A stretch of DNA of 64,000 nt. Origin: Candidatus Pacearchaeota archaeon (GTDB lineage Archaea > Nanobdellota > Nanobdellia > Pacearchaeales > GW2011-AR1). Below are positions 16,134 through 63,622 of the stretch, piece by piece. The notes below the pieces were generated by a model that worked only from the letters and a program-made list of their open reading frames with translations, was not told where the DNA came from and made no database searches. The position numbers and the translations under genes are program-made. The stretch is taken from contig JACPLR010000007.1 in NCBI GenBank assembly GCA_016186425.1, positions 2,838 through 66,837 of the forward strand. Direction: 5' to 3'. Within the stretch, counting starts at the first letter, position 1. The number at the start of each line of letters is the position of its first letter.

Positions 16134-16162
16134 CCTGTAGATATTCCTTTTTTAAAGCAATC

Positions 16163-19100: not shown

Positions 19101-20035
19101 ACAGTTCCATCAACTTTTTGTTTTTTTATTCCCCCAAATAACTGAAGAACAAGTGACTGCTTAACTTCTTCATATCCATAAATGCTTGGAGCGATATTTT
19201 CAGTGAGCTTCCGGAAAATATTTTCATCCATTGACAATTCCTTAATTTGCATCTCATCTTCTTCAGAAATCTTTAATTCTTCATAGCTTTCTTCCAGTGG
19301 AATAACATTATTTGCATCAATAGCCAAATCAAATCTTGTTGAAACAGACCCTGTTTGCAAAGGGACAGGAACTTCACTTAATATTCCAATTACTCTTACT
19401 TTGCTTCCCGGAGTTGTTCGCTCTTCCATTTTTGGGTCAACTAAATCTTCCTTCAAAAAAACATTAAGTCTTCTCGGCTGTTCTCCTCCAATCAAACTTT
19501 CAGGACTTTCTTCAATTACAAGTCTTTGAGCATCAACCATTTGCTTGCTTATCAGTTTAAAAAAACCTTTTCTTCCGCAGGAACATCTGCTTGGCTCCTT
19601 AAATTTTTTCTCTAATTGCAGAACAGAAATAATAGTTCCGCAGGAAGGACATTCAAACCTTGCGCTGACAACCTGGGGCCTCACATCACTCGCCTGCCTG
19701 ACAATTCCCTCTATCCAGAGCATTTTATTCAAGTGCTTTGCCCTTATATTCCTTATTTTAACAAAGTTATCATCAGGCAAATCAAGCAGCCTTATCCTGG
19801 GATTTTTAAGAATGCCTATTTCCTGAAGCGAAACTTCTAGATTATTAAGAATCTCTTCAGGCTTGTCAAGCAGCATTTCCGCAATCACATGTGAAAAAGA
19901 AGCCAAATCATTAAAACTCATAAAAACTATATTTTCTCCAGACCTAGCTGCTTCTCCTATCTGTTTCTTATAAAAATTAAAAAAACCCTTTGCCTCTGCA
20001 ACAAATTCTTCTTGTTTAAGTTTATCCATTTTCAC
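16163..20035 (-). CDS. mcm: MCM replicative helicase precursor containing two inteins (672-aa mature extein)
   Basis: N-terminal Zn motif CPSCG...CSCG. Walker A GDPGVAK|S is split by intein 1. Walker B IVCIDEIEKM. HEAMEQQ| is split by intein 2. Arginine-finger region LNRFDVIFML. GAGGTGA RBS 5 nt upstream of the ATG. Confidence 0.95.
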   Translation of the reverse strand: MKMDKLKQEEFVAEAKGFFNFYKKQIGEAARSGENIVFMSFNDLASFSHVIAEMLLDKPEEILNNLEVSLQEIGILKNPRIRLLDLPDDNFVKIRNIRAKHLNKMLWIEGIVRQASDVRPQVVSARFECPSCGTIISVLQLEKKFKEPSRCSCGRKGFFKLISKQMVDAQRLVIEESPESLIGGEQPRRLNVFLKEDLVDPKMEERTTPGSKVRVIGILSEVPVPLQTGSVSTRFDLAIDANNVIPLEESYEELKISEEDEMQIKELSMDENIFRKLTENIAPSIYGYEEVKQSLVLQLFGGIKKQKVDGTVTRGDIHILLVGDPGVAKSLGKNEKVLYFNNKEYGYDTIESLFNKFGKYPHSLKTLTIDMNNHAPKWKKVEQIIKHSPEKKLIKVTTEHGKSVIATLDHSFITLSKEGEIVPIKGSDLDKNTYLPLPINFHHESVKKLKTDKFNTYLTNSKQLPSEILLNEQFGFFIGAFLSEGYIRSDKTVNISNKNKKFKQKLINFADEIGLNVDKNTKDGILISSKSLSNLLKYYCYNLDKKRESKVKGNYSRIKKIPDFAYFAPRDFIKGLISGIFSGDGRFIKDDERIKGFELITVSKDLAHGTSDLLFSIGILNRIISRVYTYKGKKTEYYSLSVPTQMIQKFRDSFNFYGREYLSYNKPMYSYYNLLPVGELVYDLTKKLGYNRRIDGNRTFAAEMRTVEKRGEIGRLRLRKILQMFQKKTKEKMPDFDILKKIAYSPIVWSKIDKIEEVETQEEVYDLFIPGTNTFVANGIGVHNSITLKFVSKIAPKGRYVVGRGASGAGLTATVVRDEFLKGWSLEAGAMVLSNKGIVCIDEIEKMDEQDRSAMHEAMEQQCYLPNFNLSFADGSKIKIGEFVDNLIEKDKNNVINGINCEILPLNNGLKILTTDFESIYPVKIDKVSRHIASNKFVKINLNNGREVIVTPEHPCWTKKNKKITTNSAIKTKKGDPFPIVSKGKIRWSKIKSVEIIKNKDIKWVYDVTIEPNHSFISNNMVLHNSVTISKANVQASLRAETSVLAAGNPKFGRFDPYQAIAQQIDIQPTLLNRFDVIFMLRDLPEKARDEAIASHVLFEQQNTILRGSIEPELFRKYVAYAKQKIIPKLSDEAVAEIKNFYVSLRNAPTASDSPLKPIPITARQLEALVRLSEASAKTRLSPIVEKEDSLRAINLMKFYLMQAGYDYETKTFDIDKIVTGVTTSKRGKFIEVRDAIIKLESKMGKLIPMEELEKELENKINKAELDEAIEKLRMSGDIFVPKSGYIQRV
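16961..17449 (-). mobile_element. MCM intein 2 (163-aa mini-intein, no endonuclease domain)
   Basis: Residues 863-1025. It starts CYLPNF... after HEAMEQQ and ends ...NNMVLHN followed by +1 Ser (SVTISKANVQASL restores the MCM consensus). Block B is VTPEHP. Confidence 0.85.
17684..19048 (-). mobile_element. MCM intein 1 (455 aa) with LAGLIDADG homing endonuclease domain, inserted in the P-loop
   Basis: Residues 330-784 of the ORF. It starts with Ser after GDPGVAK and ends ...GIGVHN followed by +1 Ser (SITLKFVSKIAP restores the MCM consensus). Block B is TLDHSF. The two LAGLIDADG motifs are FFIGAFLSEGYI and LISGIFSGDGRF. Confidence 0.85.
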
Positions 20036-20209
20036 CTCTTTTATTAACTTATAAACTATCCATTTATAAAATCTTTAATTAACCGCGGTATTTATATTCA
20101 TTTCTATTCAAGAATATATATTAAAAACCCTTCTGATAACTGAAAGATGACGAAAATAACTACAGAAATTTAAATAGATAGATTAATAAAATCGAAGAAA
20201 GATAATATA

Positions 20210-20677
20210 ATGAAAGAGAATATGAGAAATAAACCGCTTTGTTATGCATGTAAAAAACCTATATCATTAAAAACTGATTTAACTATTGGTAGCATATATC
20301 CAAGATTTCCTATATATAGAATGTTCCATTCAAAACATTATGATAATTTTATGCTAAAAGGAAAATGGCATAAGAATATTATAAAGACATGGAAACCTGC
20401 CAAATATTCTCCAAAACTTCTAAAAACATACGATAGAAAATTTAACAGACAAATTGGATTTACTTATATGAATTTTTTCCATAAATTAGGAATTTTCAAA
20501 CTAAATTCTATAAATCATTGGATAATGTCTTTAATATATGCTGGATTAGTTTATGTATTACTCTTCCCAATATCAAATTTAGGAAGAATATGGCTTTATA
20601 TGTTAGGAACTCTTATCATAATCGGTTTTATATATGAAATAATTGTACTTATATATTTTTATCAGAAATATTTCTAA
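20210..20677 (+). CDS. hypothetical membrane protein (155 aa)
   Basis: Basic N-terminal half with a CYAC motif and two C-terminal hydrophobic segments. Its 3' end runs into a repeat copy. Confidence 0.4.
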   Translation: MKENMRNKPLCYACKKPISLKTDLTIGSIYPRFPIYRMFHSKHYDNFMLKGKWHKNIIKTWKPAKYSPKLLKTYDRKFNRQIGFTYMNFFHKLGIFKLNSINHWIMSLIYAGLVYVLLFPISNLGRIWLYMLGTLIIIGFIYEIIVLIYFYQKYF

Positions 20678-20826
20678 TAAAAAGAAAACTCATAAAGAAA
20701 AACATTGGCTATTAAAAGGAAGCGCCATAAGAGAAACCTTGGTGTCTTTTATTATTTTATATTATATAATTCAAAATAATTATGAAATACCGCAATATTT
20801 TTACTTGGTTTATCAATTAAATCTAT
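20666..20826 (+). repeat. IGR-A element with two nested B modules, diverged
   Basis: Collinear with the 57212 copy: ATATTTCTAATAAAAAGAAAACTCATAAAGAAAAACATTGGCTATTAAAAGGAAGCGCCATAAGAGAAACCTTGGTGTCTTTTATTATTTT...AATTCAAAATAATTATGAAATACCGCAATATTTTTACTTGG. Confidence 0.75.
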
Positions 20827-20957
20827 TTAGTTTAAAATTTTTAATTATTATATATCAATAACTGTTCAGTTTGTTACAATTTCAAAATATCAAGATAATA
20901 TTAAAATCAACGAACTCTGAGTTGATTGAATAAACAAATTAAGAAGTATAATTAAAT

Positions 20958-21074
20958 TATTTTAAATTTCTCGCAAGTAGAAATTTAGTATTGTAATGAT
21001 TTAAGAATATTTCTGAAATCATGCCATATCCTTGCCTAATTTTAATGAGTAAGTTTCAAATTTTTATTAATCAT
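20958..21074 (+). repeat. IGR-A element, full length, extended-tail subtype
   Basis: Hairpin AAATTTCT-cgcaag-(T)AGAAATTT at 20964-20986. CTGAAATCATGCCATATCCTTGCCTAATTTTAATGAGTAAGTTTCAAATTTTTATTAATCAT. Confidence 0.95.
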
Positions 21075-21124
21075 CATGTAGAGATTAGAATGTTCTATAA
21101 GTTAATACCACAACAAGTTAATTC

Positions 21125-21670
21125 TTATTTCTCACTCAATGCCTGCTTGATATTCTTGTTTAAAATAACCATGCTTTCATCAAGCTGCTGTTTGTTTTTC
21201 GTGCCTGTGCACACTAATTTTCCGTTGCTGAATAATAAAAAAGTAGCATTCGGCTCAATTAGCTTGTATACCAGGCCAGGAAACTGTTCTGGTTCGTATT
21301 CAGTATTCTGCAATGCCAAAGCAAGATAATTTAAGTTTAGTTTTAAATCAATGCTTCCGCTTGCAACAATGTTTTGGACAGTTATCTTGGGCTTGTCAGT
21401 AATTTTAACATTAATCTTTCTTAGTTGTTTAATTACTTGGTTGATTACTTCTTTAACCTGTGATATTGATTTTGTTCCAGTGCATACTAAATTTCCTGAA
21501 GAAAAGACAAGAACAGCAGATTTTGGCTTTTTGATCCTTAGTACCAAGCCAGGAAACTGCTCTGGATTATATTCTGTATTTGTCTGAGTTCTTGCTAACT
21601 TGGTTAAACTAACTGGTTTTCCTAAAGAAGCAGTAGCAACAATATTCTGCACAGACAAATTACCTTTCAT
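21125..21670 (-). CDS. tbp: TATA-box binding protein
   Basis: Two direct repeats: QNIVATASL...EQFPGLVLRI...SGNLVCTGTKS and QNIVASGSI...EQFPGLVYKL...NGKLVCTGTKN. Confidence 0.95.
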   Translation of the reverse strand: MKGNLSVQNIVATASLGKPVSLTKLARTQTNTEYNPEQFPGLVLRIKKPKSAVLVFSSGNLVCTGTKSISQVKEVINQVIKQLRKINVKITDKPKITVQNIVASGSIDLKLNLNYLALALQNTEYEPEQFPGLVYKLIEPNATFLLFSNGKLVCTGTKNKQQLDESMVILNKNIKQALSEK

Positions 21671-21710
21671 AATCCTTTATAAAGGGGATTGCTTTATAAA
21701 CCTTTCTGAA

Positions 21711-21778
21711 TGAATTTTCAAGAAGATATTTTCTAAATATATCATATTTTTACCTAATTTAAATGTGAAAGTTACTGG
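21711..21778 (+). repeat. IGR-A element, 3' half
   Basis: TGAATTTTCAAGAAGATATTTTCTAAATATATCATATTTTTACCTAATTTAAATGTGAAAGTTACTGG. Confidence 0.75.
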
Positions 21779-21837
21779 ATACTATTATCAACTCAATTAA
21801 TTAACATAATCTTGCTTAACTTAATAATTTGTTTCTT

Positions 21838-21902
21838 ACATTTTCAAGATATGTTTTTGAATTAATGCAATATCTCTCCCTAATTTATCCATTTTAGCTG
21901 TT
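21838..21902 (+). repeat. IGR-A element, 3' half
   Basis: ACATTTTCAAGATATGTTTTTGAATTAATGCAATATCTCTCCCTAATTTATCCATTTTAGCTGTT. Confidence 0.7.
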
Positions 21903-21971
21903 ATTTTTAATATATTTTCAGTTAAATTCGTTATATAAATATAATTATAGATTACATAGCACAATAAGTTT

Positions 21972-22938: not shown

Positions 22939-25900
22939 TTAACCTCCTGCTGCTTGAATACATTGATTTCTTGAGTCTGAATTAAATGGATGTTGTATAA
23001 AGCATGAGATTGCAGCCCATATGCTTTTTAATAATCCTGTTTGTTCTTTAAATGCGCCACAAACTCCTTCTATACAAACATTGCTCTCACACTCATAATC
23101 ATTTAAGCAAGAAGCAGTAGAATTCCCCGCTTTTTTATATACAAGTGTCGCAGGATCACAATACCATACTTTATTATCATTTGATTTTACTCTGGTTTTT
23201 CCAGGCACTTCGCTTGAAATTCCATTACCAGTATTAGCTAAACATTTATTTCTTCCAGGAGGGCCTTCACAATTTGCGCTGCATTGTCCGTCTTCACAAC
23301 GAGTCTGCCCTTCTGGACATGCTTCTATTTTTACAAATGTTCTCCCATCAGAAGATTCATAAGCATCATCTCCATACCATAATACTACCTTATTATTAAT
23401 TTTCTCAACATATCCAACACTAGGCACTCCAGAAGGCAAACCGCTTAATTCTCCAATAACATTTATATAATTGCCTCCAGAACTTGAATTTGATTTATAT
23501 AATCCAATACTCATAGGTGCAGTTGCTGAAGAACCCGATGTTGCAGGGCTATTAATTGTTCCTACAATCAAATACCATAAATAAACAGCATCATCGCCAG
23601 TTAAATTAGAGTAATAACCTAAGTTTGGAATCTTATTTGTTGGAAGTCCTCCTTGATTAAACAGAACATTTGCAAAAGTTCCGTTTCCGTATCCAACATA
23701 TCTATCACTTCCATTCCATAAAACTATTCTTCCCCCATGTCCTTCTAATGGATGCCAATAAGCATCTGTAGGAATAAAATCTCCAGGTAATTTTCCTCCC
23801 TCTCCACTGCCTCCTCCTGTACTAGATGAAAGTCTTTGCATTTTCCCGGTAGTATTCCTGAAATATATTTCCCTGTTTGCATTCCATAATAAAATACTAT
23901 CATTTCCAGGAAATCCTTGATAATATCCTATAACAGGTTTAAAGTCTGCTGGCAAACCTTCTGCAACCTTAGTTGTAAATTGTGTAAACCTTCCTGTGTT
24001 TCCTCTATAAATAAATGCAGCTCCACTCTCATTCCATAAAACAATTGCTCCTCCGCCATACGGATGCCAATATCCAAATTTAGGTATGAATCCTGCCGGC
24101 AATCCAGGATAAGCTCTTACTCCTTCAATATCTCCGCCACCACCGCCAGTGCCTCCAGCACCACTTTGGCAAAATCCAGTAGCAGCATTACAAAAACTTT
24201 CTGTAGGACAATCTTGTCTTTCTGTTGCAGGAGCGCAAGGAACTCCAGGAAGGGTATTTGTTTGAGCAGTGCAAGCAGCATTAGTGCCACTGCCTGCTGT
24301 TAAAGTTATATATTTTACAATTGGAGAAACAGTTCCAGAATTAAAACTACATGCAGAACCATTCCAGATTTTATAACCTGTAACATCTTTTACAAGAATA
24401 TATATTTCTTTATTAGAAGGGACAGCTAAAGAAACTCCTGCTTCAGAATAACCTGCCATAATCTCATTAACCCTGCTGCTTATAATTAATTGATTAGTTG
24501 TTTTATCATAAACTTCAACTGTTCCTGATTTATCCACTGCAGAAGCGGGTATAAAAAAATGAACACTAAGAGTAGTAGTCCCTGCTACAACGACTCTTTC
24601 AACAGCTGTAAAAGTTGCTCCGTCAGTTGATTCATAAGCATCAGCTCCATACCATAAAACAATTTTCTTTCTTATATTATCAAAATAACCTGCAGTTAAC
24701 ACTTGATTTGTTGGCAAACCAGTAGGAGAAATAAGATTAAACTTGTTCTCTGACTGGCTCCAATTATAAAGTTTCAGCTGCCCATTAATTTCATACCATA
24801 ACTGAACCCCTTTCTGTGCAGTAGAAAATTCGTAATAATAACTGACTTTTGGAGTTCCTGTTCCTGGCAAATTATAATTTACAGGATTAATTTGTGAAAA
24901 AACACTATCGCTAGCTGCAATATACCATTTTGTTGCATCAAATAAAGAAACTCTTCCGCCGGTAGTTCCCAAATTATGCCAGTAACCTGTCTTAGGAACA
25001 AAGTCGTAAGGCAATTCTCCCGGCTTTGTATCTGCTGCATTGCCAATTCTATCAGAAATTTTAGTATATTTTCCTATTACATAACTCCAAAGATACATAA
25101 CCCTATTACTATCACTTAATATTATTGTTTCTTTTCCAGAAAATCCTTGATACCATCCATAGGTTGGCTTGTAATCTCGTGGCAAACCAACAATATCTTT
25201 TCCTCCAGCTCCAGCATCATTCCATAAAGCAAAATTAACTCCATTAGTTGAATAGTAAACTCTCCCATTTGCATCCCATAATACAAGAACCCCTTTATTT
25301 GTTGCAGGAGCTGAAGGATTTCTATGCCAATATCCAAACCTTGGAGTAAACCCTGCAGGCAAACCAGTATACTCTCCAGAAGTTGCTGGGCATGATTGTA
25401 TCTCACTTGGCTTATTAGTTATAACTCCGCAATTATTGGAATCTGTGCATGTTCTTGTTTTAACTCCATTTACACAATTTACATTATCCCATGATGCAGG
25501 ATTGCAAGTCCAGGACGGAGTGCAAGTAACCGAACCCGGACAAGGATCAAATTCACAATTCAAAGCAGGATTTCTTCCAACAGAACTTCCATCAGGACAA
25601 ATTTTAGCTTCCTTTGTACAAGCAGAAGTACATTGAGTTGTTCCAGTTCCTGTTTCTAATGTTATTGTTTTTGTAACAACGCCTCCACTTACAGTAAGAG
25701 TAAAAGGACAATTTATACCATTAAAATCTTTATAGCCATTAACATCTTTAATATAAATATAAATAGGAATATCAAGAATATTTGCGCTAGAAGATGAAGG
25801 AAATGAAGCTGAAAAAGCACCGGCAACTTGTAACCCCAACCTAACATTATTATTAGAATCTAAAACTTGATTATCAGACGCTCTTCTTATTTCTATTGTA

Positions 25901-26088
25901 GCAATATTATCTGCAGAACCCTGAGCATTTGCAACAACATCCAATCTTGGAGGAGAACTCAACTGCGGCTTACCTTTAAAAGAATCAATAAAATCAGTAA
26001 ACCAATTTGCAGAAACAAAACTCATCGCCAAAAGAATAAAAATGACTAATATTGATACTAAAATAAATGCGCTCACACCCTTTTTCAT
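22939..26088 (-). CDS. giant secreted Cys-rich repeat protein (1049 aa), paralog of 28146..30989
   Basis: Signal/TM then SFVSANWFTDFID. Two internal copies of [Ig-like beta domain - Cys-rich knot - five GLPxxFxPxxGYWH...LW units]. C-terminal CLNDYECESNVCIEGVC plus a helix. Confidence 0.8.
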   Translation of the reverse strand: MKKGVSAFILVSILVIFILLAMSFVSANWFTDFIDSFKGKPQLSSPPRLDVVANAQGSADNIATIEIRRASDNQVLDSNNNVRLGLQVAGAFSASFPSSSSANILDIPIYIYIKDVNGYKDFNGINCPFTLTVSGGVVTKTITLETGTGTTQCTSACTKEAKICPDGSSVGRNPALNCEFDPCPGSVTCTPSWTCNPASWDNVNCVNGVKTRTCTDSNNCGVITNKPSEIQSCPATSGEYTGLPAGFTPRFGYWHRNPSAPATNKGVLVLWDANGRVYYSTNGVNFALWNDAGAGGKDIVGLPRDYKPTYGWYQGFSGKETIILSDSNRVMYLWSYVIGKYTKISDRIGNAADTKPGELPYDFVPKTGYWHNLGTTGGRVSLFDATKWYIAASDSVFSQINPVNYNLPGTGTPKVSYYYEFSTAQKGVQLWYEINGQLKLYNWSQSENKFNLISPTGLPTNQVLTAGYFDNIRKKIVLWYGADAYESTDGATFTAVERVVVAGTTTLSVHFFIPASAVDKSGTVEVYDKTTNQLIISSRVNEIMAGYSEAGVSLAVPSNKEIYILVKDVTGYKIWNGSACSFNSGTVSPIVKYITLTAGSGTNAACTAQTNTLPGVPCAPATERQDCPTESFCNAATGFCQSGAGGTGGGGGDIEGVRAYPGLPAGFIPKFGYWHPYGGGAIVLWNESGAAFIYRGNTGRFTQFTTKVAEGLPADFKPVIGYYQGFPGNDSILLWNANREIYFRNTTGKMQRLSSSTGGGSGEGGKLPGDFIPTDAYWHPLEGHGGRIVLWNGSDRYVGYGNGTFANVLFNQGGLPTNKIPNLGYYSNLTGDDAVYLWYLIVGTINSPATSGSSATAPMSIGLYKSNSSSGGNYINVIGELSGLPSGVPSVGYVEKINNKVVLWYGDDAYESSDGRTFVKIEACPEGQTRCEDGQCSANCEGPPGRNKCLANTGNGISSEVPGKTRVKSNDNKVWYCDPATLVYKKAGNSTASCLNDYECESNVCIEGVCGAFKEQTGLLKSIWAAISCFIQHPFNSDSRNQCIQAAGG

Positions 26089-26300: not shown

Positions 26301-26333
26301 TATAAATAATCAATATAAGCTTATTTCATCCAA

Positions 26334-26400
26334 CTAATAAATTATTTTAAATTTCTCGTAGGGAGAAATTTAGCATTGTATTGTTTTCAAAAAAAATTTC
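26334..26400 (+). repeat. IGR-A element, 5' half
   Basis: CTAATAAATTATTTTAAATTTCTC-gtagg-GAGAAATTTAGCATTGTATTGTTTTCAAAAAAAATTTC. Hairpin at 26349-26371. The copy ends at the lig stop codon. Confidence 0.85.
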
Positions 26401-28145: not shown

Positions 28146-30989
28146 TTATCCTAAAAAATTATTTATGCATTGCTCACGTTGTTCTTGACTAATTGGATGT
28201 GCAATTAAACAAAGGAGAGATATTGCGTACCTCTGAAATGCATTGACTTTATTAATTTCCTCTTTTATAGGCAAACACTCTCCAGATGAACAGAAATTGC
28301 TCTCACATTCATAATTATTCTGGCATTTTGCAACGCTTCCATCATAATCTTTTATTTTTTGCTCATTTATATTTCCATCATAATTACAATAAGAGTTTAT
28401 ATCTCTAAGGAAAGTCATATCAACATAATTTTCTTCACTATTTAAAGCAAGAAAATTGATCCCATCAATTCTCACAGGTATTTCTAAACCTTCAGAATCT
28501 GGATTAACAATTGTTATTCTATCACCTAAGAATAGATTATAAGTTATATTCTTTTCTTTTCCAATCAAAGTGAACCTTGCTTCATTATCTGAAAGAACAT
28601 CTAATATAAAATCGTCAACATTATTTATTTCATATAATCTATTTTTATCTGATTCTTCATAAATAAATCTAGTTCCATAAGGAATGCAAACATTGTCGCT
28701 GAATTTATAATCAGCCCACCTAGGAACTAAACATCCGGCGCAAATTCCAGGGCTGCAATAAGATTCACGAGTTACATCTGGGCTATTACAATCAGAATTA
28801 TCAATACATGTTGTTGTTTGTCTTCCGTGAGGCGGACAAATAATAGGCTCTGTCTTGCACTGGTAATAAGGTTCGCATGTTTCCAAACTAATTTCAGAAG
28901 AACATTGGGAAAGGCTAACTTCAATTTGACGGGACAAAGGATAAGGTATCTCAAAATCCTCCCAGTTAACAGAGTTAGCATCATTATTTTGCAAGGCATT
29001 GATAAAATCATTTAACTTATACTGTGAAAGCTTAAGCAATTCTTCATCAGAAAGTTTTTTTCCACTGCTTACATATACCACAACTGCAATATTATCTTTA
29101 ATCCATATTACCTCTCGCGTTTTATAATTATATTGGTCAAGATCCTGATTTCCATAAAATACATCCCAATTGCAGATGTAAACTTTATTTTCTTTATTAT
29201 CTGAACTCCAGTAAGTTCGTGGTTGACATATTCTTCCAGATATAGTAGAATCAATCCAAGAACTTAAATTCAAATCTTGATTATCAAAAACATTAAGATT
29301 ATAGTCAATATTATAATTCACATTATCATAATAAGTATGCCAAGAAGCATAATAATGAGTTGTAGGATAATCTTTTCCATTAATCCAAACACTGCTTCTT
29401 TCACTTGAATTCCACCCAAGGTTATATACTATATTATAATCAAAGAAACTAGCTGGCTGAGCTACTTTTTTAATCAGGTCAGGACAAACATTTGATGGCT
29501 CAATAATAATAATAGGACAGTAAAAAGTCATTACATCACTTCCTGTTGTTTGCGGAAAATTCAAAGTTACTTTTATTGCATCCATATTAAATGAAGGACC
29601 ACTATAAGTTAAGCCATATTCCATTCCACCAATTGAAATTGTTGTTAAACCTTCTATTGAGGTAGAAGCTGTTGTGTAAACTTCATTTGTAAGCACGTCT
29701 TTTAATTCGACTTTATCTCCCTCTCCCTGAGGATATGAACTATTTATAACAGTTTGAACTCTTAATAAATAACCAGGAATAACAACATAATTTCCTTTAT
29801 AAAATACCTCGCCTTCTTTTACTACCACAATCTTGCCTTGAGATTGTAAATTAGTTATATTTATTCTTATTTCATTATTTAAATAACCACAGCCATCAAC
29901 TTCTGTTAAGCCTCCAACAATACAATCACCATTACTACAACCATTAGGACAAAGATTACAACCTGCTCCTCCTGAATTTGCAATGCACTGCCCATTTTGA
30001 CATATATAAGTAGTAGTTGAAGTACAAGAAGAGTCTCCAGAACAATAATTCCTAGAAGTTGACGGACAATCACTATCACTAGAACATTGAGAAGTTGATA
30101 TTCCAACATTTACTTTATAGTAAATTCTTCCATCACCTGACTCGTAAACTTTATCATTAAACCATAGGATAACTTTCTTTCTTATCTTATCAAAATAAGC
30201 AATATTCGGAGTATTTGGGATTATTGTGCCATCAGACAATCTTGGCCTTACAGCCCCGCTAAATTTACCAGTAGAAGAATCATATCTATAATAACCTTGA
30301 GAGGACCATAAGTTAGTTGACTCAACCTCTCCTATAACATAATTAACAACTGCCAAAGGCAAATTTGGCATTTCTAATAAACTGCTCTGTGAAAATTTTA
30401 AATCACTTCCAGCACTATATTCTTTATAAGTTCCACTTGTCTGGCCCCAAAAGATTATTTTCCCGCCATTAAATTTATGGAAAATGCCTTTTTGTAAAAC
30501 AAAATCGCTAGGCAATCCAACAGCCACCATCATTTCATTTGTAAATGGTTCAAACTTTTTTGTATTCGGATTATAAACATAAACCATGCCATTACCATCT
30601 GATAAAATTATCCTTCCATTACCATCTCCAAAAGCATGATAAAAACCAACTCTTGGCTTGAAATCAGAAGGCAAACCAGAAGCAACTTTTTCTGCATCAC
30701 TCCACTTAACAAATTTCAAACCATCACTTGAAAAATAAGCCTGTCCATTTACATCCCATAAAATTATTTTTCCAACAGAACCAGCTGGAAAGGGATGCCA
30801 ATAACCAACAACTGGCTGAAAACCATCAGGCAACCCTTCAAATATTGTTGTCCCAGGGCTTAAAGAAACTTCTTTTCCACTTAGTTTATCAAAAAAATCA
30901 GTAAACCAATTTGCAGAAACAAAACTTAACGAAATAATAATCATTAAGAACACTATCGAAAATAAAAATAAATTCACCCTCTTTTCCAT
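28146..30989 (-). CDS. giant secreted Cys-rich repeat protein (947 aa), paralog of 22939..26088
   Basis: Signal/TM then SFVSANWFTDFFD. One five-unit GLPxxFxPxxG(Y/F)(W/Y)H...LW block (aa 51-293), Cys-rich regions, and C-terminal CQNNYECESNFCSSGEC plus a helix. Confidence 0.8.
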   Translation of the reverse strand: MEKRVNLFLFSIVFLMIIISLSFVSANWFTDFFDKLSGKEVSLSPGTTIFEGLPDGFQPVVGYWHPFPAGSVGKIILWDVNGQAYFSSDGLKFVKWSDAEKVASGLPSDFKPRVGFYHAFGDGNGRIILSDGNGMVYVYNPNTKKFEPFTNEMMVAVGLPSDFVLQKGIFHKFNGGKIIFWGQTSGTYKEYSAGSDLKFSQSSLLEMPNLPLAVVNYVIGEVESTNLWSSQGYYRYDSSTGKFSGAVRPRLSDGTIIPNTPNIAYFDKIRKKVILWFNDKVYESGDGRIYYKVNVGISTSQCSSDSDCPSTSRNYCSGDSSCTSTTTYICQNGQCIANSGGAGCNLCPNGCSNGDCIVGGLTEVDGCGYLNNEIRINITNLQSQGKIVVVKEGEVFYKGNYVVIPGYLLRVQTVINSSYPQGEGDKVELKDVLTNEVYTTASTSIEGLTTISIGGMEYGLTYSGPSFNMDAIKVTLNFPQTTGSDVMTFYCPIIIIEPSNVCPDLIKKVAQPASFFDYNIVYNLGWNSSERSSVWINGKDYPTTHYYASWHTYYDNVNYNIDYNLNVFDNQDLNLSSWIDSTISGRICQPRTYWSSDNKENKVYICNWDVFYGNQDLDQYNYKTREVIWIKDNIAVVVYVSSGKKLSDEELLKLSQYKLNDFINALQNNDANSVNWEDFEIPYPLSRQIEVSLSQCSSEISLETCEPYYQCKTEPIICPPHGRQTTTCIDNSDCNSPDVTRESYCSPGICAGCLVPRWADYKFSDNVCIPYGTRFIYEESDKNRLYEINNVDDFILDVLSDNEARFTLIGKEKNITYNLFLGDRITIVNPDSEGLEIPVRIDGINFLALNSEENYVDMTFLRDINSYCNYDGNINEQKIKDYDGSVAKCQNNYECESNFCSSGECLPIKEEINKVNAFQRYAISLLCLIAHPISQEQREQCINNFLG

Positions 30990-31150
30990 TTTACTTTAAT
31001 TAATCAAATAAAAATAGATTTATAAATCTTTATATAAAATTTAGAAAAGAAAAAAAACGCCGAAAATAAGAAAAATTGAGTTAACAATTGTTAAGTGTAT
31101 ATTTTAAAAAATATTAAAAGAAAAAATAAATTAAATGACTAATTAATCAA

Positions 31151-31260
31151 CCTAATAAGCCATGCAAAATTTTTCTAAATGAAAAATTTTATATTACACA
31201 TTTTCAAAAATGTTCTTGAAATATTACAACAATTCTTCCTACTTTATTAGCTAGAACTTC
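31151..31260 (+). repeat. IGR-A element, full length with diverged tail
   Basis: CCTAATAAGCCATGCAAAATTTTTC-taaat-GAAAAATTTTATATTACACATTTTCAAAAATGTTCTTGAAATATTACAACAATTCTTCCTAC. Confidence 0.85.
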
Positions 31261-31284
31261 TAATCTTAAAATTATCAATGATTA

Positions 31285-31418
31285 ATTTTTAAAATCATTG
31301 GCTATTAAAAGGAGATGTCATAAGAAGAACCTTGGCGTTTAAAAGGAGATGTCATAAGAAGAACCTTGGCGTTTAAAAGGAGAGTTCATAAAGAGAACCT
31401 TGGTTCTTTTTATTATTT
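31285..31418 (+). repeat. B-module tandem array (partial unit + 3 x 34 bp + closing T-rich tail)
   Basis: Units start at 31305, 31339 and 31373 with an exact 34-bp period: TTAAAAGGAGATGTCATAAGAAGAACCTTGGCGT twice, then TTAAAAGGAGAGTTCATAAAGAGAACCTTGGTTC, then TTTTTATTATTT reaching the rpl15e stop. Confidence 0.9.
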
Positions 31419-31932
31419 ATCTCAGCCCTCTCGACTTTCTTCCGGCAGAAGTCAACCCTCTGAAAACTCTGTGCCTGTTTTCAGGCCTGCAGATCCAGTT
31501 TATTGTTCTGTCATGTTTTATTTCTGGTTTTTCAGGATCAACTAAAATAACTTCAAAGAAATAATGCTCGCCATCTTTTCCAATCAAATATGAATTCAAA
31601 ACTTCAAGATTCTTGAATTTTCTTGCAGCTCTCTGCTCTGCAATCCACTGATAATTCATTGAAAGAGATTTTCTTACAGCCAGGCTTGCTCCTGATTTTC
31701 TTGCTTTGCTAGGCCTTGGCCTTCTATGCCCCCCTCTTTTCAAGTAAACTCTAGCAACAATAAAACCTTTTTTTGCTTTGTATCCAAGTTTCCTTGCCCT
31801 GTCTAACCTTAAAGGTTTTTCAACTTTAACAATAACATTCCCTCTTCTCCATTCAGTCATCCTGTCTCTAAGAGTTTTCTTTTCAGGGCTTTTCCATGCT
31901 TCTCCGATATAATGATACATTCCTTTTGCCAT
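31417..31932 (-). CDS. rpl15e: 50S ribosomal protein L15e
   Basis: MYHYIGEAWKSPEK...RLDRARKLGYKAKKGFIVARVYLKRGG...NSYLIGKDGEHYFFEVILVDP is canonical L15e. Confidence 0.9.
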   Translation of the reverse strand: MAKGMYHYIGEAWKSPEKKTLRDRMTEWRRGNVIVKVEKPLRLDRARKLGYKAKKGFIVARVYLKRGGHRRPRPSKARKSGASLAVRKSLSMNYQWIAEQRAARKFKNLEVLNSYLIGKDGEHYFFEVILVDPEKPEIKHDRTINWICRPENRHRVFRGLTSAGRKSRGLR

Positions 31933-33228: not shown

Positions 33229-33367
33229 TGTAATTAACTATAAAATTTAGTTATTATCTTAGTATTTTAAGATTTAAAAATGTTTGGAAAGATAAAAAAT
33301 GATGCCTAAAAAAATTATAGAATATACCAAAATATTAAAGATTTTAACAATTACTAACTTAATTGAA

Positions 33368-33475
33368 ATCAAGCATAAATTTTCCTAAAAGAAAATTTAT
33401 TTATTATGTGATTCAAAAAAAATATTCTTGAAACATCACAATATCTCTCCATAATTTATCATAAGAAAGTTTCTG
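33368..33475 (+). repeat. IGR-A element, full length
   Basis: Hairpin AAATTTTC-ctaaaa-GAAAATTT at 33377-33398. GTGATTCAAAAAAAATATTCTTGAAACATCACAATATCTCTCCATAATTTATCATAAGAAAGTTTCTG. Confidence 0.85.
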
Positions 33476-33539
33476 ATATTTTATTAATCAATCTTAATAC
33501 CTGTATTTTATAAAATATATAAGATAATAGCCAACACTT

Positions 33540-36197: not shown

Positions 36198-36245
36198 CTT
36201 TTATAAAATATAAATAAAAAAGAAAGATAATGTTAATAAACTTAG

Positions 36246-36322
36246 CTATTAAAAGGAAAGTTTGATAAAGAAAACCATTGGTTCGCTTAAAAGGAAAGTT
36301 CATGAATTAAACAAACCATCAC
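36246..36322 (+). repeat. B-module, two free-standing tandem units
   Basis: CTATTAAAAGGAAAGTTTGATAAAGAAAACCATTGGTTCGC then TTAAAAGGAAAGTTCATGAATTAAACAAACCATCAC. Confidence 0.8.
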
Positions 36323-36342
36323 TTTAAATTAACAATCTTAAA

Positions 36343-36445
36343 TTAGGATTAAATTTTCTAAATGAAAATTTATTTATTGCTTATTTCCAAAATATTCTTG
36401 AATCTCACAATATTTTTACCTTATTTTTACATCTTAAGTTATTGG
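36343..36445 (+). repeat. IGR-A element, full length
   Basis: Hairpin AAATTTTC-taaat-GAAAATTT at 36351-36371. ATATTCTTGAATCTCACAATATTTTTACCTTATTTTTACATCTTAAGTTATTGG. Confidence 0.85.
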
Positions 36446-36478
36446 TTTTAATCGTTTTTATAAATTACATATTCCAGA

Positions 36479-36780: not shown

Positions 36781-36934
36781 TGCGCCAGCCGGGAATTGAA
36801 CCCGGCTCTAAACCTTTTTCCACTGGTTGCAGGATTCTTTGAATTCATACAACGTGAATGGTTGCAGGATTCATAAAAACCCGCTGGTGGTTTTTATTTG
36901 GGAAGGTTTTATTCTGCCGATAAACTACAAGCGC
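36781..36934 (-). tRNA. tRNA-Gly(CCC) with 83-nt anticodon-loop intron
   Basis: Minus-strand read: GCGCTTG-TA-GTTT-ATCGGCA-GAAT-A-AAACC-TTCCCA[83 nt]A-GGTTT-AGAG-CCGGG-TTCAATT-CCCGG-CTGGCGC-A. The anticodon stem is a perfect 5 bp. There is one U:U mismatch in the acceptor stem (6:67). No encoded CCA. Confidence 0.7.
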
Positions 36935-40874: not shown

Positions 40875-41092
40875 ACACTAATATTCACTCTCTTTTTCTA
40901 ATAAAGATTAGATGCCTTTTGCAAAAAGCAGCAAAGGGTGCGTAAAATCCAAGCTAAACAGGTATTTATATTTTATGTTTCTTAATTTATTTTACAAAAT
41001 ATTATAAACTCAGAAATAGTAAAAGAAAATGAAAATAAAAGGCTAAACTTAATTAATTATTAATCAAAATAGTCCAAACAGATAAACCATGT

Positions 41093-41195
41093 AAATGCAT
41101 TGTTATATTTTCAAAACAATTTTCTAAACATACAATATTAAATTTTCCTAGGTGAAAAATTTATGGCTGATTTATATAAATAACCTGCTAATTAT
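41093..41195 (+). repeat. IGR-A element, rearranged (hairpin-2-like part precedes hairpin 1)
   Basis: AATGCATTGTTATATTTTCAAAACAATTTTC... followed by AAATTTTC-ctaggt-GAAAAATTT at 41140-41162. Confidence 0.5.
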
Positions 41196-43939: not shown

Positions 43940-44033
43940 GGGCCTATAGTTCAATGGATAAAACATTCGGCTTCGGTTACCACCTATTAATAGGAGATAC
44001 CGGAAGATCTAGGTTCGAATCCTAGTAGGCCCA
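43940..44033 (+). tRNA. tRNA-Arg(UCG) with 22-nt anticodon-loop intron
   Basis: GGGCCTA-TA-GTTC-AATGGATA-AAAC-A-TTCGG-CTTCGG[22 nt]A-CCGGA-AGAT-CTAGG-TTCGAAT-CCTAG-TAGGCCC-A. The acceptor and T stems are perfect. No encoded CCA. Confidence 0.75.
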
Positions 44034-44104: not shown

Positions 44105-44172
44105 AATTAGGCATAAATTTTCCTCTTAAAAGGAAAGTTTGATAAAGAAAACCATTGGTTGTCTTTATTTTC
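44105..44172 (+). repeat. IGR-A element, 5' part with one B module
   Basis: AATTAGGCATAAATTTTCCTCTTAAAAGGAAAGTTTGATAAAGAAAACCATTGGTTGTCTTTATTTT. The B part is near-identical to the 8393 copy. Confidence 0.85.
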
Positions 44173-44209
44173 CACAACCTTAATAAATGCCTTAAACTTT
44201 TATCTGAAC

Positions 44210-46524: not shown

Positions 46525-46547
46525 ATATTGAAATAAATAAATGCTTA

Positions 46548-46658
46548 ATAAATTATGTTAAATTTTTCACAGAAGAAAAATTTAGTGTTATATCATTTTC
46601 AAAATTATTCTGAAATCATGCCATCCCCTTGCCTCATTTTAATGTGTAAGCTGCTAAT
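46548..46658 (+). repeat. IGR-A element, full length
   Basis: Hairpin AAATTTTTC-acagaa-GAAAAATTT at 46560-46583. TTCTGAAATCATGCCATCCCCTTGCCTCATTTTAATGTGTAAGCTGCTAAT. Confidence 0.95.
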
Positions 46659-46897
46659 ATTTTATCAATAACCATTCAATACTTTAATATTATATAGGTT
46701 ATATGCTAAGGTTTAAAACAATAGAAGACCTTAATGATATAAGATTAAATATTAAAGATTTACAAAGAAAGGTATTCAAAAATGGCAATAAAAAGTGATC
46801 CTGTTGACATGATATTTGATATAATTAAAATAGCGATAATTGTAATTATAGGTTATATAATTATTAAAGCATTATTGTCTGTAATTTAATGTCTAAA

Positions 46898-51149: not shown

Positions 51150-51246
51150 TTTTATTTTTCTTTGCCTCCTTTCACTATTTTATTTTTCATTTTATTTATT
51201 TTAAAAAATTTAATGTTTTAATTTAAAAATAGCTTAAATAATATTA

Positions 51247-51351
51247 ATCAGGCAAACTTTTTCTTTGAATGAAAAGGTTCTATTATGTATTTTCAAAATT
51301 ATTCTTGAATCATAACAATATCTTTGCCTAATTTTTCCATTTAAGCTGCTT
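51247..51351 (+). repeat. IGR-A element, full length, hairpin 1 with compensatory substitutions
   Basis: AACTTTTTC-tttgaat-GAAAAGGTT at 51255-51279. TATTTTCAAAATTATTCTTGAATCATAACAATATCTTTGCCTAATTTTTCCATTTAAGCTGCT. Confidence 0.9.
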
Positions 51352-51388
51352 ATTAATTTTTATCTTTATATAGGTTATATACAATAAA

Positions 51389-52003
51389 TTACATTTTTCT
51401 CCAATTTAATATCATGAAAATTATCAATGCAAAAACCCCGCCAAGCAAAAACCATATCCATATTTCAGGCATTTGTGAAACAGAATTAACTACATTACTT
51501 CCTGCATCTGGCATAATGCTCGGAGCAACTTTATCCAGAATTTCAGCACCCCCAGAACTTACCACTCCACTATCTGCACTTCTAACAGCCATATCTGCAG
51601 TTTTTTGTATACTTGAAGAATAAACATTAGAAGTATATAATCTAATTAGCAAAGCTCCAATTCCTGTTGCTAATAATGCTGAAAGCAAAGTTTTTGTATT
51701 TGAACTTGATTTCGGAGAAATTATTATTTTCTTATTAGCAACTTTATAATAAGGTATTTTCTTGCCCTTAACACTCCAGAAATAAGTTTTTGTCTTTTCA
51801 ATCAGCCCTGCTTCAAGCAATTTCTTGATATTATAATTAACAGTATTTGCAGGAAGTTTCAATGCATTAGATATTTCTGTCTCACTTGCCTCTTTATCAG
51901 CAAGATGCTCTAAAATAGCTTTAGAGGTTTTATTTGATATAACATCTGCTAAAACCTTTATCTTCTCATCATCCATTTCAAACATAATATATTTATTTGT
52001 CAT
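51389..52003 (-). CDS. ArsR-like wHTH regulator with C-terminal membrane segments
   Basis: ILEHLADKEASETEISNALKLPANTVNYNIKKLLEAGLIEK (wHTH) plus two hydrophobic segments (LLSALLATGIGALLIRLY and WIWFLLGGVFALIIFMILNW). Confidence 0.6.
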   Translation of the reverse strand: MTNKYIMFEMDDEKIKVLADVISNKTSKAILEHLADKEASETEISNALKLPANTVNYNIKKLLEAGLIEKTKTYFWSVKGKKIPYYKVANKKIIISPKSSSNTKTLLSALLATGIGALLIRLYTSNVYSSSIQKTADMAVRSADSGVVSSGGAEILDKVAPSIMPDAGSNVVNSVSQMPEIWIWFLLGGVFALIIFMILNWRKM

Positions 52004-54474: not shown

Positions 54475-54559
54475 ATCAGGTAAAATTGCTGCAGTATTTT
54501 CAAAATTATTCTGGAATCATGCCATATCTCTACATAATCTTAATATGAAAGTTACTAAG
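54475..54559 (+). repeat. IGR-A element lacking hairpin 1
   Basis: ATCAGGTAAAATTGCTGCAGTATTTTCAAAATTATTCTGGAATCATGCCATATCTCTACATAATCTTAATATGAAAGTTACTAAG. Confidence 0.85.
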
Positions 54560-54668
54560 TTTTACTAGTCTTAATTTAAGCTATATAATTTATTATTATA
54601 TATTTCAAAATAAATATAAATACTTCCATTATACAAATCTATTAATATTCTATTTTTTTCTTTTAAAT

Positions 54669-57140: not shown

Positions 57141-57211
57141 TTTATACTTTAGTAATCCAAGGTTAATAAAACTAATGTTGCAAAGGCATTACAACTGGTT
57201 AATTTAAACAT

Positions 57212-57388
57212 CTAATAAATCATTTTAAATTTCTCCTAATAAAAGGAAAGTTTCATAAAGAAAAACATTGGCTATTAAAAGGAGATGTCATAAGAAGAAC
57301 CTTGGTTCTTTTTATTATTTAGTATTGTAATGATTCAAGACTTTTTGAAATCATGCCATATCCTTGCCTAAGTTAAATGAGAAATCTA
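57212..57388 (+). repeat. IGR-A element, full length with two nested B modules
   Basis: CTAATAAATCATTTTAAATTTCTCCTAATAAAAGGAAAGTTTCATAAAGAAAAACATTGGCT + ATTAAAAGGAGATGTCATAAGAAGAACCTTGGTTCTTTTTATTATTT + AGTATTGTAATGATTCAAGACTTTTTGAAATCATGCCATATCCTTGCCTAAGTTAAATGAG. Confidence 0.95.
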
Positions 57389-57430
57389 CAAATATTTAAA
57401 CATTCTATAAGTTATATACTCAAATTAATA

Positions 57431-57495
57431 TTATTCAAAATTGTTCCGAAATCACACCATAGCTTCCCTAATTTTTACATCTTAAGTTTCTATCC
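57431..57495 (+). repeat. IGR-A element, 3' half
   Basis: TTATTCAAAATTGTTCCGAAATCACACCATAGCTTCCCTAATTTTTACATCTTAAGTTTCTATCC. Confidence 0.8.
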
Positions 57496-57497
57496 TT

Positions 57498-57590
57498 TTT
57501 ATTGGTTGTCTTTATTTGATATTGAAAGAATTCAAAAAATATCTTGAATCATTGCCACATCTTTACCTACCTTATTCGCTTAATATGTTA
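57498..57590 (+). repeat. B-module remnant plus IGR-A 3' half
   Basis: TTTATTGGTTGTCTTTATTTGATATTGAAAGAATTCAAAAAATATCTTGAATCATTGCCACATCTTTACCTACCTTATTCGCTTAATATG. Confidence 0.8.
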
Positions 57591-60306: not shown

Positions 60307-60365
60307 AAGAAAAATAAATTCAGTATTAACGAAAAACAAGTCTAAATTACTTAACCGCGTAGAAG

Positions 60366-60469
60366 TAGGTTAAATTTCTCCTAAAAGAGAAATTTAGAAT
60401 TATAGTAATTCAAGAATATTTTGAATCCATGCCATATCTCTGCCTAATTTTCATATCTTAAGTTACTGC
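60366..60469 (+). repeat. IGR-A element, full length
   Basis: Hairpin AAATTTCTC-ctaaaa-GAGAAATTT at 60372-60395. GTAATTCAAGAATATTTTGAATCCATGCCATATCTCTGCCTAATTTTCATATCTTAAGTTACTGC. Confidence 0.95.
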
Positions 60470-60541
60470 TATATCTTAAATTATTTCTATAATATATATA
60501 AGTCTAACAACTTTTTTAAACATACTCTTCCTGCTATTTCT

Positions 60542-63412: not shown

Positions 63413-63465
63413 ATTTTAAATAATTTAAACATATACATTACTCTACTTAAATACTTAACCAACTT

Positions 63466-63570
63466 ATAAATCATTTTAAATTTCTCTAAACGAGAAATTT
63501 TATATTATATGATTCGAGATTCTTGAAATATATCCATATTTTCCCTGATTTTTTCGTTAGAGTTACTCAA
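63466..63570 (+). repeat. IGR-A element, full length
   Basis: ATAAATCATTTTAAATTTCTC-taaac-GAGAAATTT (hairpin at 63478-63500). ATGATTCGAGATTCTTGAAATATATCCATATTTTCCCTGATTTTTTCGTTAGAGTTACTCAA. Confidence 0.9.
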
Positions 63571-63622
63571 CTACTTATTCAATTATTCCTATATTAAAGT
63601 CTTACTTTTCTCTCACTATTTC

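Follow-up and report, generated by a model that had tools for sequence, protein, structure and literature searches.

What keeps the two arms of a short hairpin complementary in a repeat whose other parts have diverged? The question is raised by a 64,000-nucleotide stretch of DNA from a Candidatus Pacearchaeota archaeon (assembly GCA_016186425.1, contig JACPLR010000007.1, positions 2,838 to 66,837 of the forward strand), referred to here as the window, in which an interspersed intergenic repeat occurs many times. The hairpin, hairpin 1, is an optional module of this repeat, which is non-coding, mosaic and similar to a miniature inverted-repeat transposable element (MITE). We find that the compensatory changes in hairpin 1 are real and that its stem has been protected since the copies diverged. 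To judge from the sequence, hairpin 1 is most likely a cis-acting stem-loop in transcripts at gene boundaries that were made by insertion of the repeat, a reading to which we give a probability of roughly 0.45. The copy on which the analysis centers comprises two nested features:

51255 to 51279, + strand: hairpin 1 of the focal copy, AACTTTTTC / TTTGAAT / GAAAAGGTT, with 9 pairs.
51195 to 51391, + strand: the full focal unit of 197 nt, its bounds taken from the empty site in a related locus, L024 (related loci carry labels of this form).

An nhmmer search of the window found 24 copies of the repeat, 23 on the + strand and 1 on the - strand, a density of about 375 copies per Mb. Its core spans about 110-140 nt and the complete unit about 200 nt. 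On the left is an arm (..AATTAATT..YTAAC-TTAATAAATCATGYT), which is followed by the optional hairpin 1, a zone that holds a possible second hairpin (hairpin 2) and the best-conserved core (TGAAATCATGCCATATCCTTGCCTAATTTTAATGWGTAAGYTACTG), after which come a T-rich stretch and a TATA-like motif (CTATAAGTTATATAC). TATA-like motifs are found at both ends of the element, and in most copies CTATAAGTTATATAC or a variant of it lies 25-40 nt to the right of the core. The focal unit has all these parts: its left arm contains TATA-like motifs, hairpin 1 lies about 60 nt in from the left end, the hairpin-2 zone and the core (..ATATCTTTGCCTAATTT..) follow, and the right arm ends in ..TATACAATAAATTA. Many copies are truncated or mosaic and several lack hairpin 1, whose place in the copies at 8361 and 57317 is taken by a hairpin of a separate 34-nt family with a T-rich tail. 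A YWAAC motif to the left of many copies appears to be inside the repeat. No open reading frame (ORF) is conserved across the copies, and a C/D-box small RNA, a mini-ORF and a Shine-Dalgarno sequence in the core were rejected by eye, the CTGA and ATG motifs not being conserved. Rfam searches of the window and related loci, at the gathering threshold and at E <= 1, returned only tRNAs, three of them in the window.

Hairpin 1 has an A/T-rich stem of 9 bp with 1-2 G-C pairs and a loop of 4-7 nt (3 to 8 in degenerate copies), and on the + strand it is preceded by an A-tract and followed by a T-rich tract (TTTTATATT or TTTATTATT). Its arms fall into variants. Type A arms (AAATTTTTC/GAAAAATTT) are found at 7029, 11606, 16024, 31167 and 46560, a pattern with 5 matches in the window versus 0 expected from 100 shuffles; type B arms (AAATTTCTC/GAGAAATTT) at 26349, 60372 and 63478; and type C arms (AAATTTTC/GAAAATTT), which form an 8-bp stem, at 33377 and 36351. 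The focal copy has one C-G pair in place of A-T, plus one T:G pair. An earlier note made from the window sequence had listed copies of hairpin 1, all of which are present, its sole slip being 31166 for 31167 (AAAATTTTTC begins at 31166). It had overlooked the copy at 20964 (AAATTTCT/AGAAATTT, with C·T as the closing pair), a degenerate one at 14792 and one on the - strand at 41162 (AAATTTTTC/GGAAAATTT, with a T:G pair). Diverged forms with a 34-nt module in or after the loop lie at 8367-8464 and 57207-57330. A covariance model of hairpin 1 and its flanks matched 14 copies in the window and one more with a large loop insertion, together with 1 copy in L003, 3 in L012 and 3 in L024, and gave 0 matches in five syntenic relatives; these matches place hairpin 1 only within the longer repeat. 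Outside hairpin 1, enrichment of the 9-mer GAAAAATTT is not seen (15 matches versus 11 +/- 3.3 expected), and a reading of it as an uptake-signal-like 9-mer was rejected for that reason. An independent assembly (Logan SRR12113430) is 100% identical across 3,575 nt that include the focal copy, which is thus not an assembly artefact.

The pattern of change within the stem carries the main finding. In a model-fitted alignment of 18 copies, 96.3% of the stem cells are paired, compared with 87.0 +/- 1.2 in shuffles (0/500), and 5 of the 9 pairs have changed on both sides, compared with 1.9 in shuffles (0/500). Moving the 3' partner by 1-3 columns lowers pairing to 36-69%. A hand-curated table of 20 copies, drawn from the window and three relatives, has Watson-Crick pairs in 171 of 178 stem cells, the rest being 3 G:T, 1 C·A and 3 other mismatches, and the altered stem cells comprise 11 changed on both sides versus 7 changed on one. 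Copies in the same table, compared two at a time, have on average 88% identity in one arm and 85% in the other, versus 41-45% in the ten bases on each side of the hairpin and 34% in the loops, which vary as the earlier note had said. At least four kinds of compensated change are present: at stem position 7, T-A has become C-G in 7 copies; at stem position 3, A-T has become C-G in copy 51255; at the closing pair, C-G has become T-A in L012_9505; and copies 33377 and 36351 have a paired one-base deletion.

The earlier note took the joint change of both arms as the mark of a selected structure, a claim that would lose its force if the variants simply followed the descent of the copies. A neighbor-joining tree was built from the non-hairpin parts of the same copies (total length 6.15 substitutions per site). 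The 7 copies with the change at stem position 7 are scattered on this flank tree, and parsimony fits the 18 stem columns to it with only 21 changes. When independent-site evolution was simulated on the tree, with the rate set to reproduce the amount of change seen, a fraction of paired cells at least as high as in the data arose with P = 0.0003, 3 or more compensated pair types with P = 0.006 and as many compensated cells as in the data with P = 0.002; the type C paired deletion was left out of the simulation, which makes it conservative. Covariation therefore remains significant when relatedness is taken into account (P about 0.0003-0.006), and the objection from descent fails. Since insertion, loop and flanks have changed about 8 times as fast as the stem. 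Comparison of 16024 with the copy at the same position in L012 (L012_13436m) reveals one arm change, to A·A, and a different loop, and comparison of 63478 with L024_1257m, an internally deleted copy that is probably its orthologue, reveals identical arms with the loops TAAAC and GCAAA. Arm sequence is conserved as well as intrastrand pairing, while loops and flanks have diverged near saturation.

The setting in which the stem has been kept is one of insertion. The repeat is insertion-derived and lineage-specific: it is absent from the syntenic loci L007, L008, L010, L015 and L017, whose TBP is 94-96% identical to that of the window, and the empty sites of relatives, where the same genes abut, establish its origin. 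The stops of the MCM gene and a gene of 120 aa overlap in L010 and are separated in the window by a 147-nt gap that the copy at 16004-16144 fills; the gap between the OB-fold and Zip genes is 2 nt in L010 versus 195 nt in the window, and that between the eIF1A and KH genes 1 nt versus 372 nt. L012 and L024, with coding DNA 80-87% identical, have copies at some of the window's positions and not at others. L012 has the copy at the position of 16004-16144, with the A·A mismatch in its stem, and the one upstream of TBP, and L024 has one copy at the position of a cluster at 57207-57584. At the L024 empty site for the focal copy, the stop of a helix-turn-helix (HTH) regulator gene and the SIMPL gene are 1 nt apart (..TTTTTCATTTTA|CATTTTTCTCC..), where the window has 197 additional bases (51195-51391). 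The focal junctions have a possible TA/TTA duplication at 51195/51391. The site of copy 60349 is also empty in L024, with a 46-nt gap, and this copy is flanked on both sides by the 8-nt direct repeat AAGTCTAA. Since these candidate target duplications differ in length, none is established.

Beyond the syntenic relatives, the repeat core is found at 85-94% identity in another Pacearchaeota genome, RIFCSPHIGHO2_02_FULL_31_29 (L001-L004, L006), as well as in a Hainich groundwater contig (L005), and the coding DNA of these relatives has no DNA-level alignment to the window. Collection scans for copies returned one other Pacearchaeota genome (2 matches) and 4 metagenome contigs; five matches in viral contigs lay in coding DNA and were dismissed as chance. 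Copy 16024 is 90% identical to its paralogue 20964 and aligns visibly more poorly with the same-position copy in L012, where the flanking coding DNA is about 85% identical, which argues that copies undergo conversion or replacement. The right half of the core differs freely between same-position copies of the window and L012. As a separate observation, positions 700-900 of L025, which correspond to 51150-51390 of the window and lie by an HTH protein gene with a product 85% identical, hold an unrelated, G+C-richer insert of about 200 nt with long inverted repeats (CATCAAAAAGTCC...GGACTTTTGGATG; CCACACCT...AGGTGTGG). The same junction has thus been struck by different repeat families.

Orientation of the copies along the chromosome appears to follow a chromosome-strand (replication) rule rather than gene direction. 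Third-codon GC skew in the window has a coding component of +0.13 and a strand component of -0.20 on the + strand, and the latter does not switch across the window. Copies 13791 and 60349 lie between + strand genes and hold the majority orientation, so gene direction is not what sets it. At the independent locus L003, the strand component is -0.14 on the + strand and 3/3 copies are on that strand; the flanking genes there are co-oriented.

Why, then, would the stem be kept? Pairing within one nucleic-acid strand is presumably needed at each locus, and selection probably acts at individual loci, because under a master-copy model old copies would be free to decay, template switching preserves symmetry and not sequence, and conversion would homogenize the loops. 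Since a dimeric site in duplex DNA is unlikely, RNA or single-stranded DNA remains as the folded molecule. A boundary role in RNA is favored because the insertions separate formerly adjacent or co-transcribed genes, because hairpin 1 lies between an A-tract and a T-rich tract, because another hairpin with a T-rich tail can substitute for it, and because the TATA-like motifs of the arms match the organism's promoter consensus, AAAGnTTTATAAA, with one of them upstream of the start of the cut-off SIMPL gene (about 50 nt from its start codon in the focal element). The molecule that folds would be the transcript that now crosses the insertion, and hairpin 1 with the A-tract before it and the T/U-rich tract after it may form a boundary that serves 3'-end formation, protection or attenuation. 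Such a boundary would fall between formerly adjacent genes and adjoin the TATA-like motifs in the arms of the element. In convergent gene pairs, hairpin 1 lies 9-66 nt past the stop of the + strand gene. RNA-level roles of this boundary type are documented for the bacterial REP/BIME, Correia and BOX elements.

Several observations weigh against a transcript boundary role or bear on the strand that folds. The earlier note had argued from the focal T:G pair that the + strand is the folded molecule, which the full set of copies does not support. On the + strand of the element, the wobbles of the curated table comprise 3 G:T (51255, 41162m and L003_714) versus 1 C·A (L024_6429m), which is not significant and, if anything, slightly favors the strand antisense to most neighboring genes. 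Hairpin 1 of the focal copy folds with -7.2 kcal/mol on the + strand versus -3.8 on the - strand as RNA, and with -3.5 versus -2.4 as DNA, whereas for whole elements the + strand folds better in 5 copies and the - strand in 8, and the 197-nt unit compared with shuffles has z = -1.75 (+) and -3.03 (-). Term-seq of four model archaea found U-tracts without a preceding hairpin at transcript ends (PMC8716108), so that a hairpin-dependent terminator would be unusual in an archaeon. Type B stems lack a T5 run, and copies also occur in divergent promoter regions, where a 3' end is not needed. The 23:1 orientation bias and the strand-skew relation in L003 are unexplained by a palindromic terminator, and the conservation of arm sequence beyond pairing points to a specific recognition factor. 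With 1-2 G-C pairs, the stem is not the G+C-rich stem of a bacterial-type intrinsic terminator. A scan with a bacterial terminator consensus found 7 sites versus 8.2 expected, none at hairpin 1, and a bacterial promoter scan found no enrichment; both consensuses are bacterial and uninformative for an archaeon.

The main rival, possible if unlikely, is that hairpin 1 is instead a structure of single-stranded DNA that serves strand-specific, replication-coupled mobilization, as in palindrome-associated transposable elements (PATEs) derived from IS200/IS605 or in REP/RAYT-like systems, and that the copies share one orientation as a side effect of inserting into a single template strand at the fork. 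The properties of such strand-specific families are described elsewhere (PMC5027513, PMC3333891, PMC3116915), and this explanation would account for the orientation bias, its tracking of third-codon GC skew (r = -0.20 in the window and -0.14 in L003), the conservation of arm sequence along with pairing, the tolerance of G:T on one strand and the failure to find a convincing long target-site duplication. Yet hairpin 1 is dispensable, many copies lacking it or having another module in its place; it lies about 60 nt in from the left end of the 197-nt unit; and it does not resemble hairpin 2, whereas the left- and right-end hairpins of IS200/IS605 resemble each other. No conserved 4-5 nt target was found beside a defined end, and TnpA, TnpB and RAYT are absent from the window and the fetched loci; more broadly, no partner transposase was found among the window ORFs in Pfam and NCBIfam searches or in the fetched loci. 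Stems are conserved in old, diverged copies, which speaks for selection in place and not on a master copy only, and a replication-relative orientation bias is also found in insertion sequence families that have no single-stranded intermediates (PMC3971601). Somewhat less likely again is a more far-reaching version in which a strand-polarized DPANN element has its hairpin read as single-stranded DNA at the fork, and which would be either a novel archaeal single-strand transposition system saturating the intergenic space of a genome of about 1 Mb or a domesticated chromosome-polarity or replication signal kept at each locus by host-level selection.

The remaining explanations fare worse. That there is no structural selection at all, with template switching or short conversion tracts keeping the symmetry and shared variants reflecting subfamily descent, is improbable. 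Copies do change in concert (16024 is closer to 20964 than to its L012 counterpart), a 24-nt hairpin fits within one conversion tract, and stem and flank variants are reassorted on the flank tree; but template switching lets sequence drift, whereas identity in the arms is 85-88% and the flanks change about 8 times as fast as they do, conversion would also homogenize the loops and the bases right beside the hairpin, where variation is in fact greatest (34% and 41-45% identity), and the tree-aware null is rejected. Slightly more improbable still is that each copy is the gene of a small RNA of about 100 nt, running from the right-arm TATA-like motif through the core and hairpin 2 and ending in hairpin 1 as its 3' terminal stem. 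The position of CTATAAGTTATATAC 25-40 nt right of the core, the folding of the 197-nt unit on the minus strand (z = -3.0) and the constant presence of hairpin 1 or a T-rich-tailed hairpin at the far end are consistent with such a gene, while it is opposed by the absence of Rfam matches even at E <= 1, of a consensus structure beyond hairpin 1 and of copy-specific covariation in the pairing of left and right arms (P = 0.8), by the placement of an A-rich tract resembling a TFB-recognition element for transcription outward and not into the core, by the many truncated or mosaic copies and by the free divergence of the right half of the core between same-position copies of the window and L012. Least probable is a palindromic site in duplex DNA for a dimeric regulator or nucleoid protein. 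Hairpin 1 is a perfect inverted repeat with conserved half-sites, and its A-tracts and T-tracts could bend DNA, but a spacer that ranges from 4 to 7 nt, and from 3 to 8 among degenerate copies, cannot be reconciled with half-sites at a fixed distance, half-sites that co-change within one genome (types B, C and D) would not be tolerated by a single protein, and the half-site is not enriched alone.

Apart from the focal unit, the copies of the repeat in the window are as follows:

7009 to 7141, + strand: copy with a type A hairpin 1 at 7029-7052; positions 6931-6993 hold a partial copy.
8361 to 8519, + strand: copy with the 34-nt module family at the hairpin-1 position and a diverged stem, AAATTTCTCC/GGAAAGTTT.
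11585 to 11716, + strand: copy with a type A hairpin 1 at 11606-11628, between the eIF1A gene and a KH-domain gene.
13791 to 13874, + strand: copy without hairpin 1, between two + strand genes.
14771 to 14883, + strand: copy with a degenerate hairpin 1 at 14792-14812, between the stops of the Zip and OB-fold genes.
16004 to 16144, + strand: copy with a type A hairpin 1 at 16024-16045, between the stops of the 120-aa gene and MCM.
20948 to 21082, + strand: copy with a type B-like hairpin 1 at 20964-20986, with a C·T closing pair.
21715 to 21905, + strand: two copies without hairpin 1 (21715-21778 and 21842-21905), upstream of TBP.
26327 to 26400, + strand: right-truncated copy with a type B hairpin 1 at 26349-26371, downstream of the DNA ligase gene.
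31147 to 31268, + strand: copy with a type A hairpin 1 at 31167-31189.
33356 to 33497, + strand: copy with a type C (8-bp) hairpin 1 at 33377-33398.
36330 to 36455, + strand: copy with a type C hairpin 1 at 36351-36371.
41076 to 41179, - strand: the sole minus-strand copy, with hairpin 1 at 41140-41162, in a divergent promoter region.
46540 to 46681, + strand: copy with a type A hairpin 1 at 46560-46583, 36 nt past the stop of the prolyl-tRNA synthetase gene.
54490 to 54571, + strand: copy without hairpin 1, in a divergent intergenic region.
57207 to 57584, + strand: three clustered copies (57317-57406, 57433-57496 and 57515-57584), with a diverged hairpin 1 and 34-nt modules ahead of them.
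60349 to 60489, + strand: copy with a type B hairpin 1 at 60372-60395, between two + strand genes.
63457 to 63591, + strand: copy with a type B hairpin 1 at 63478-63500, probably with an orthologous copy in L024.

The earlier note also described a second hairpin that keeps its pairing while its sequence varies. Most copies do have its apex, TTCAA...TTGAA (or TTTCA...TGAAA), but what is conserved there is the sequence, and no covarying consensus was found. RNAalifold returned zero consensus pairs for 22 hairpin-2 segments and, for the full-length alignment, hairpin 1 as the sole structure. Folding of hairpin 2 copy by copy against dinucleotide shuffles gave a mean z of -0.67 on the + strand and -0.98 on the - strand, and its lower stem (ATGATT/AATCAT, GTGAT/ATCAC or TTATG/CATAA) has a few compensations and many breaks. 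The case for the second hairpin as a structure is weak. A long-range stem between the left arm and the right part of the core is neat in 51255 but was rejected, being without copy-specific covariation (19 copies, P = 0.8).

The 34-nt family (unit approximately TTAAAAGGAGATGTCATAAGAAGAACCTTGGC) occurs singly or in tandem, with all 10 units of the window on the + strand, at 31283-31427, 8371-8438, 20674-20757, 36245-36288, 44122-44173 and 57235-57321. Tandems include about 4 copies after the L15e gene and at least 7 in L012 (9201-9457), and the final unit terminates in a hairpin of higher G+C content (GAACCTTGGTTC) that carries a T-rich tail. The family is also found in relatives without the main repeat (L015, L006), and in L003 and L005 its orientation is opposite to that of the main repeat. 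At 1690-1870 of L015, one unit lies by a tRNA-Ile gene between two copies of the 14-nt tRNA end GAGCTACAGGCTCG, an arrangement that looks like a duplication from insertion or integration at the tRNA gene.

Among known systems, the element is best filed with the interspersed intergenic mosaic repeats: MITEs, the repetitive extragenic palindromic (REP) sequences and bacterial interspersed mosaic elements (BIMEs), BOX and Correia elements. Like MITEs and Correia elements, it is short (100-200 nt; the focal unit has 197), non-coding, multi-copy and intergenic, its presence is polymorphic between close relatives, and it has promoter-like ends, internal stem-loops and imperfect inverted repeats near its ends. 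The latter are short (TATTTATT.. at the left end versus ..AATAAATTA at the right end; AACTTAA/TTAAGTT; AATCAGGC/GCCTGATT), and pairing between the two arms of one copy, set against pairing with the arms of other copies, is no better than chance (P = 0.8). DPANN genomes are reported to be among the densest in MITEs, at 105-146 per Mb (census of PMC11602168). In contrast to MITEs, the present repeat reaches about 375 copies per Mb in the window, has a mosaic architecture with optional modules and is oriented 23:1, whereas cut-and-paste MITEs insert both ways; terminal inverted repeats and a target duplication are not cleanly definable, and no partner transposase was found in the window and fetched loci.

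REP/BIME elements have documented RNA-level roles, and pneumococcal BOX elements have the form boxA-boxB(n)-boxC, in which an internal stem-forming module varies in presence or number. The present repeat shares with BOX a modular mosaic of short units, but differs in being unrelated in sequence, archaeal and orientation-biased. With REP/BIME and REPIN elements (PMC3333891, PMC3116915) it shares imperfect palindromes that lie between genes, measure about 25-35 nt and are conserved in the stem, a mosaic with other motifs and a location at gene ends; it differs in its archaeal host, its A/T-rich stem, the lack of a conserved 5' GTAG-like tetranucleotide and, in the window and fetched loci, of a RAYT gene, and in that hairpin 1 lies inside a longer repeat and is not itself the unit. 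PATEs of IS200/IS605 type (PMC5027513) are likewise hairpin-bearing and non-autonomous, with a replication-related orientation, as here (23:1, with the skew relation in the window and L003), and no long target duplication. In the present repeat, however, hairpin 1 (AAATTTTTC/GAAAAATTT) and hairpin 2 (TTCAA/TTGAA) are not similar subterminal hairpins, hairpin 1 being optional and not subterminal, and neither a conserved target tetranucleotide nor TnpA or TnpB was found in the window and fetched loci. Integron attC sites are also structured imperfect palindromes in one orientation that recombine as folded single strands, but an attC array was rejected: the genes are syntenic housekeeping genes and tRNAs and not cassettes, there is no integrase, R''/R' is not conserved, and the attC core GTTRRRY is present in a minority of copies only. 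No description of this repeat family was found in the searched literature, which is weak evidence of novelty.

The host chromosome in the window has 30% G+C and, by profile searches, a housekeeping gene set that includes the Val/Ile-type, Met, Pro and Ala tRNA synthetases, eRF1, eIF1A, eIF2beta, TBP, DNA ligase, L15e, GatB and TFE; TBP is 100% identical to a Candidatus Pacearchaeota protein. The MCM helicase gene (16163-20035, - strand) encodes 1,290 aa with intein splicing and LAGLIDADG domains. MCM is intein-free with 670-673 aa in L007 and L015 and has 1,124-1,185 aa in L008, L010, L012 and L017, so that intein content varies within the clade. The regions upstream of TBP and MCM (21640-21700 and 20035-20100) are nearly identical in the window and L012, with TTTATAAA boxes 6-30 nt from the annotated starts, which suggests that both mRNAs are leaderless or have very short leaders and that TBP starts at a GTG six codons past the first ATG of its ORF. 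Two large proteins without Pfam domains, of 1,049 and 947 aa (22939-26088 and 28146-30989, both - strand), are paralogues, since their genes have several DNA repeat blocks in common. The 947-aa gene sits between the L15e and ligase genes, which are adjacent (44-81 nt apart) in L012, L007 and L010, and by this comparison it is a lineage-specific gene insertion or duplication beside repeat copies.

Two tRNA genes of the window, at 43940-44033 (+ strand, 94 nt) and 36781-36934 (- strand, 154 nt), were called by Rfam but missed by ARAGORN run in bacterial mode. Their length exceeds that of an uninterrupted tRNA, so that they probably contain introns, and they support an archaeal source for the window. 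A tRNA-like 3' portion lies at 10073-10165 (- strand), with an anticodon-stem/loop-like CACGG-CTGTTA..(34-nt insert)..A-CCGTG (GTT = Asn), then GGGTC, a T-arm GGAGG-TTCGAGT-CCTCC, the 3' acceptor strand CCGAGGC-G and TTTT. A 5' acceptor strand to match it was not found nearby, and neither ARAGORN nor Rfam makes a call. In L015, the homologous 3' part is about 550 nt downstream of a tRNA 5' half, with a 112-aa ORF between them. It may be a split tRNA or a tRNA with a giant intron.

The repeat described here is a new family of a familiar kind of element, and its strict orientation and very high density set it apart. Current concepts are unchanged by it, and an archaeal example is added to the class that includes REP, MITE and BOX elements. 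DPANN genomes are very small and tightly packed, and in this lineage the repeat has widened many junctions from 0-2 nt to 150-400 nt and split former operons, such as eIF1A-KH and HTH-SIMPL. The lineage is thus a natural experiment in the tolerance, and perhaps the use, of selfish insertions by a minimal archaeal genome. The shared direction of nearly all copies could mark the direction of replication in genomes whose origins are unmapped, and hairpin 1 is among the few non-coding features of such genomes for which there is direct comparative evidence of selection.

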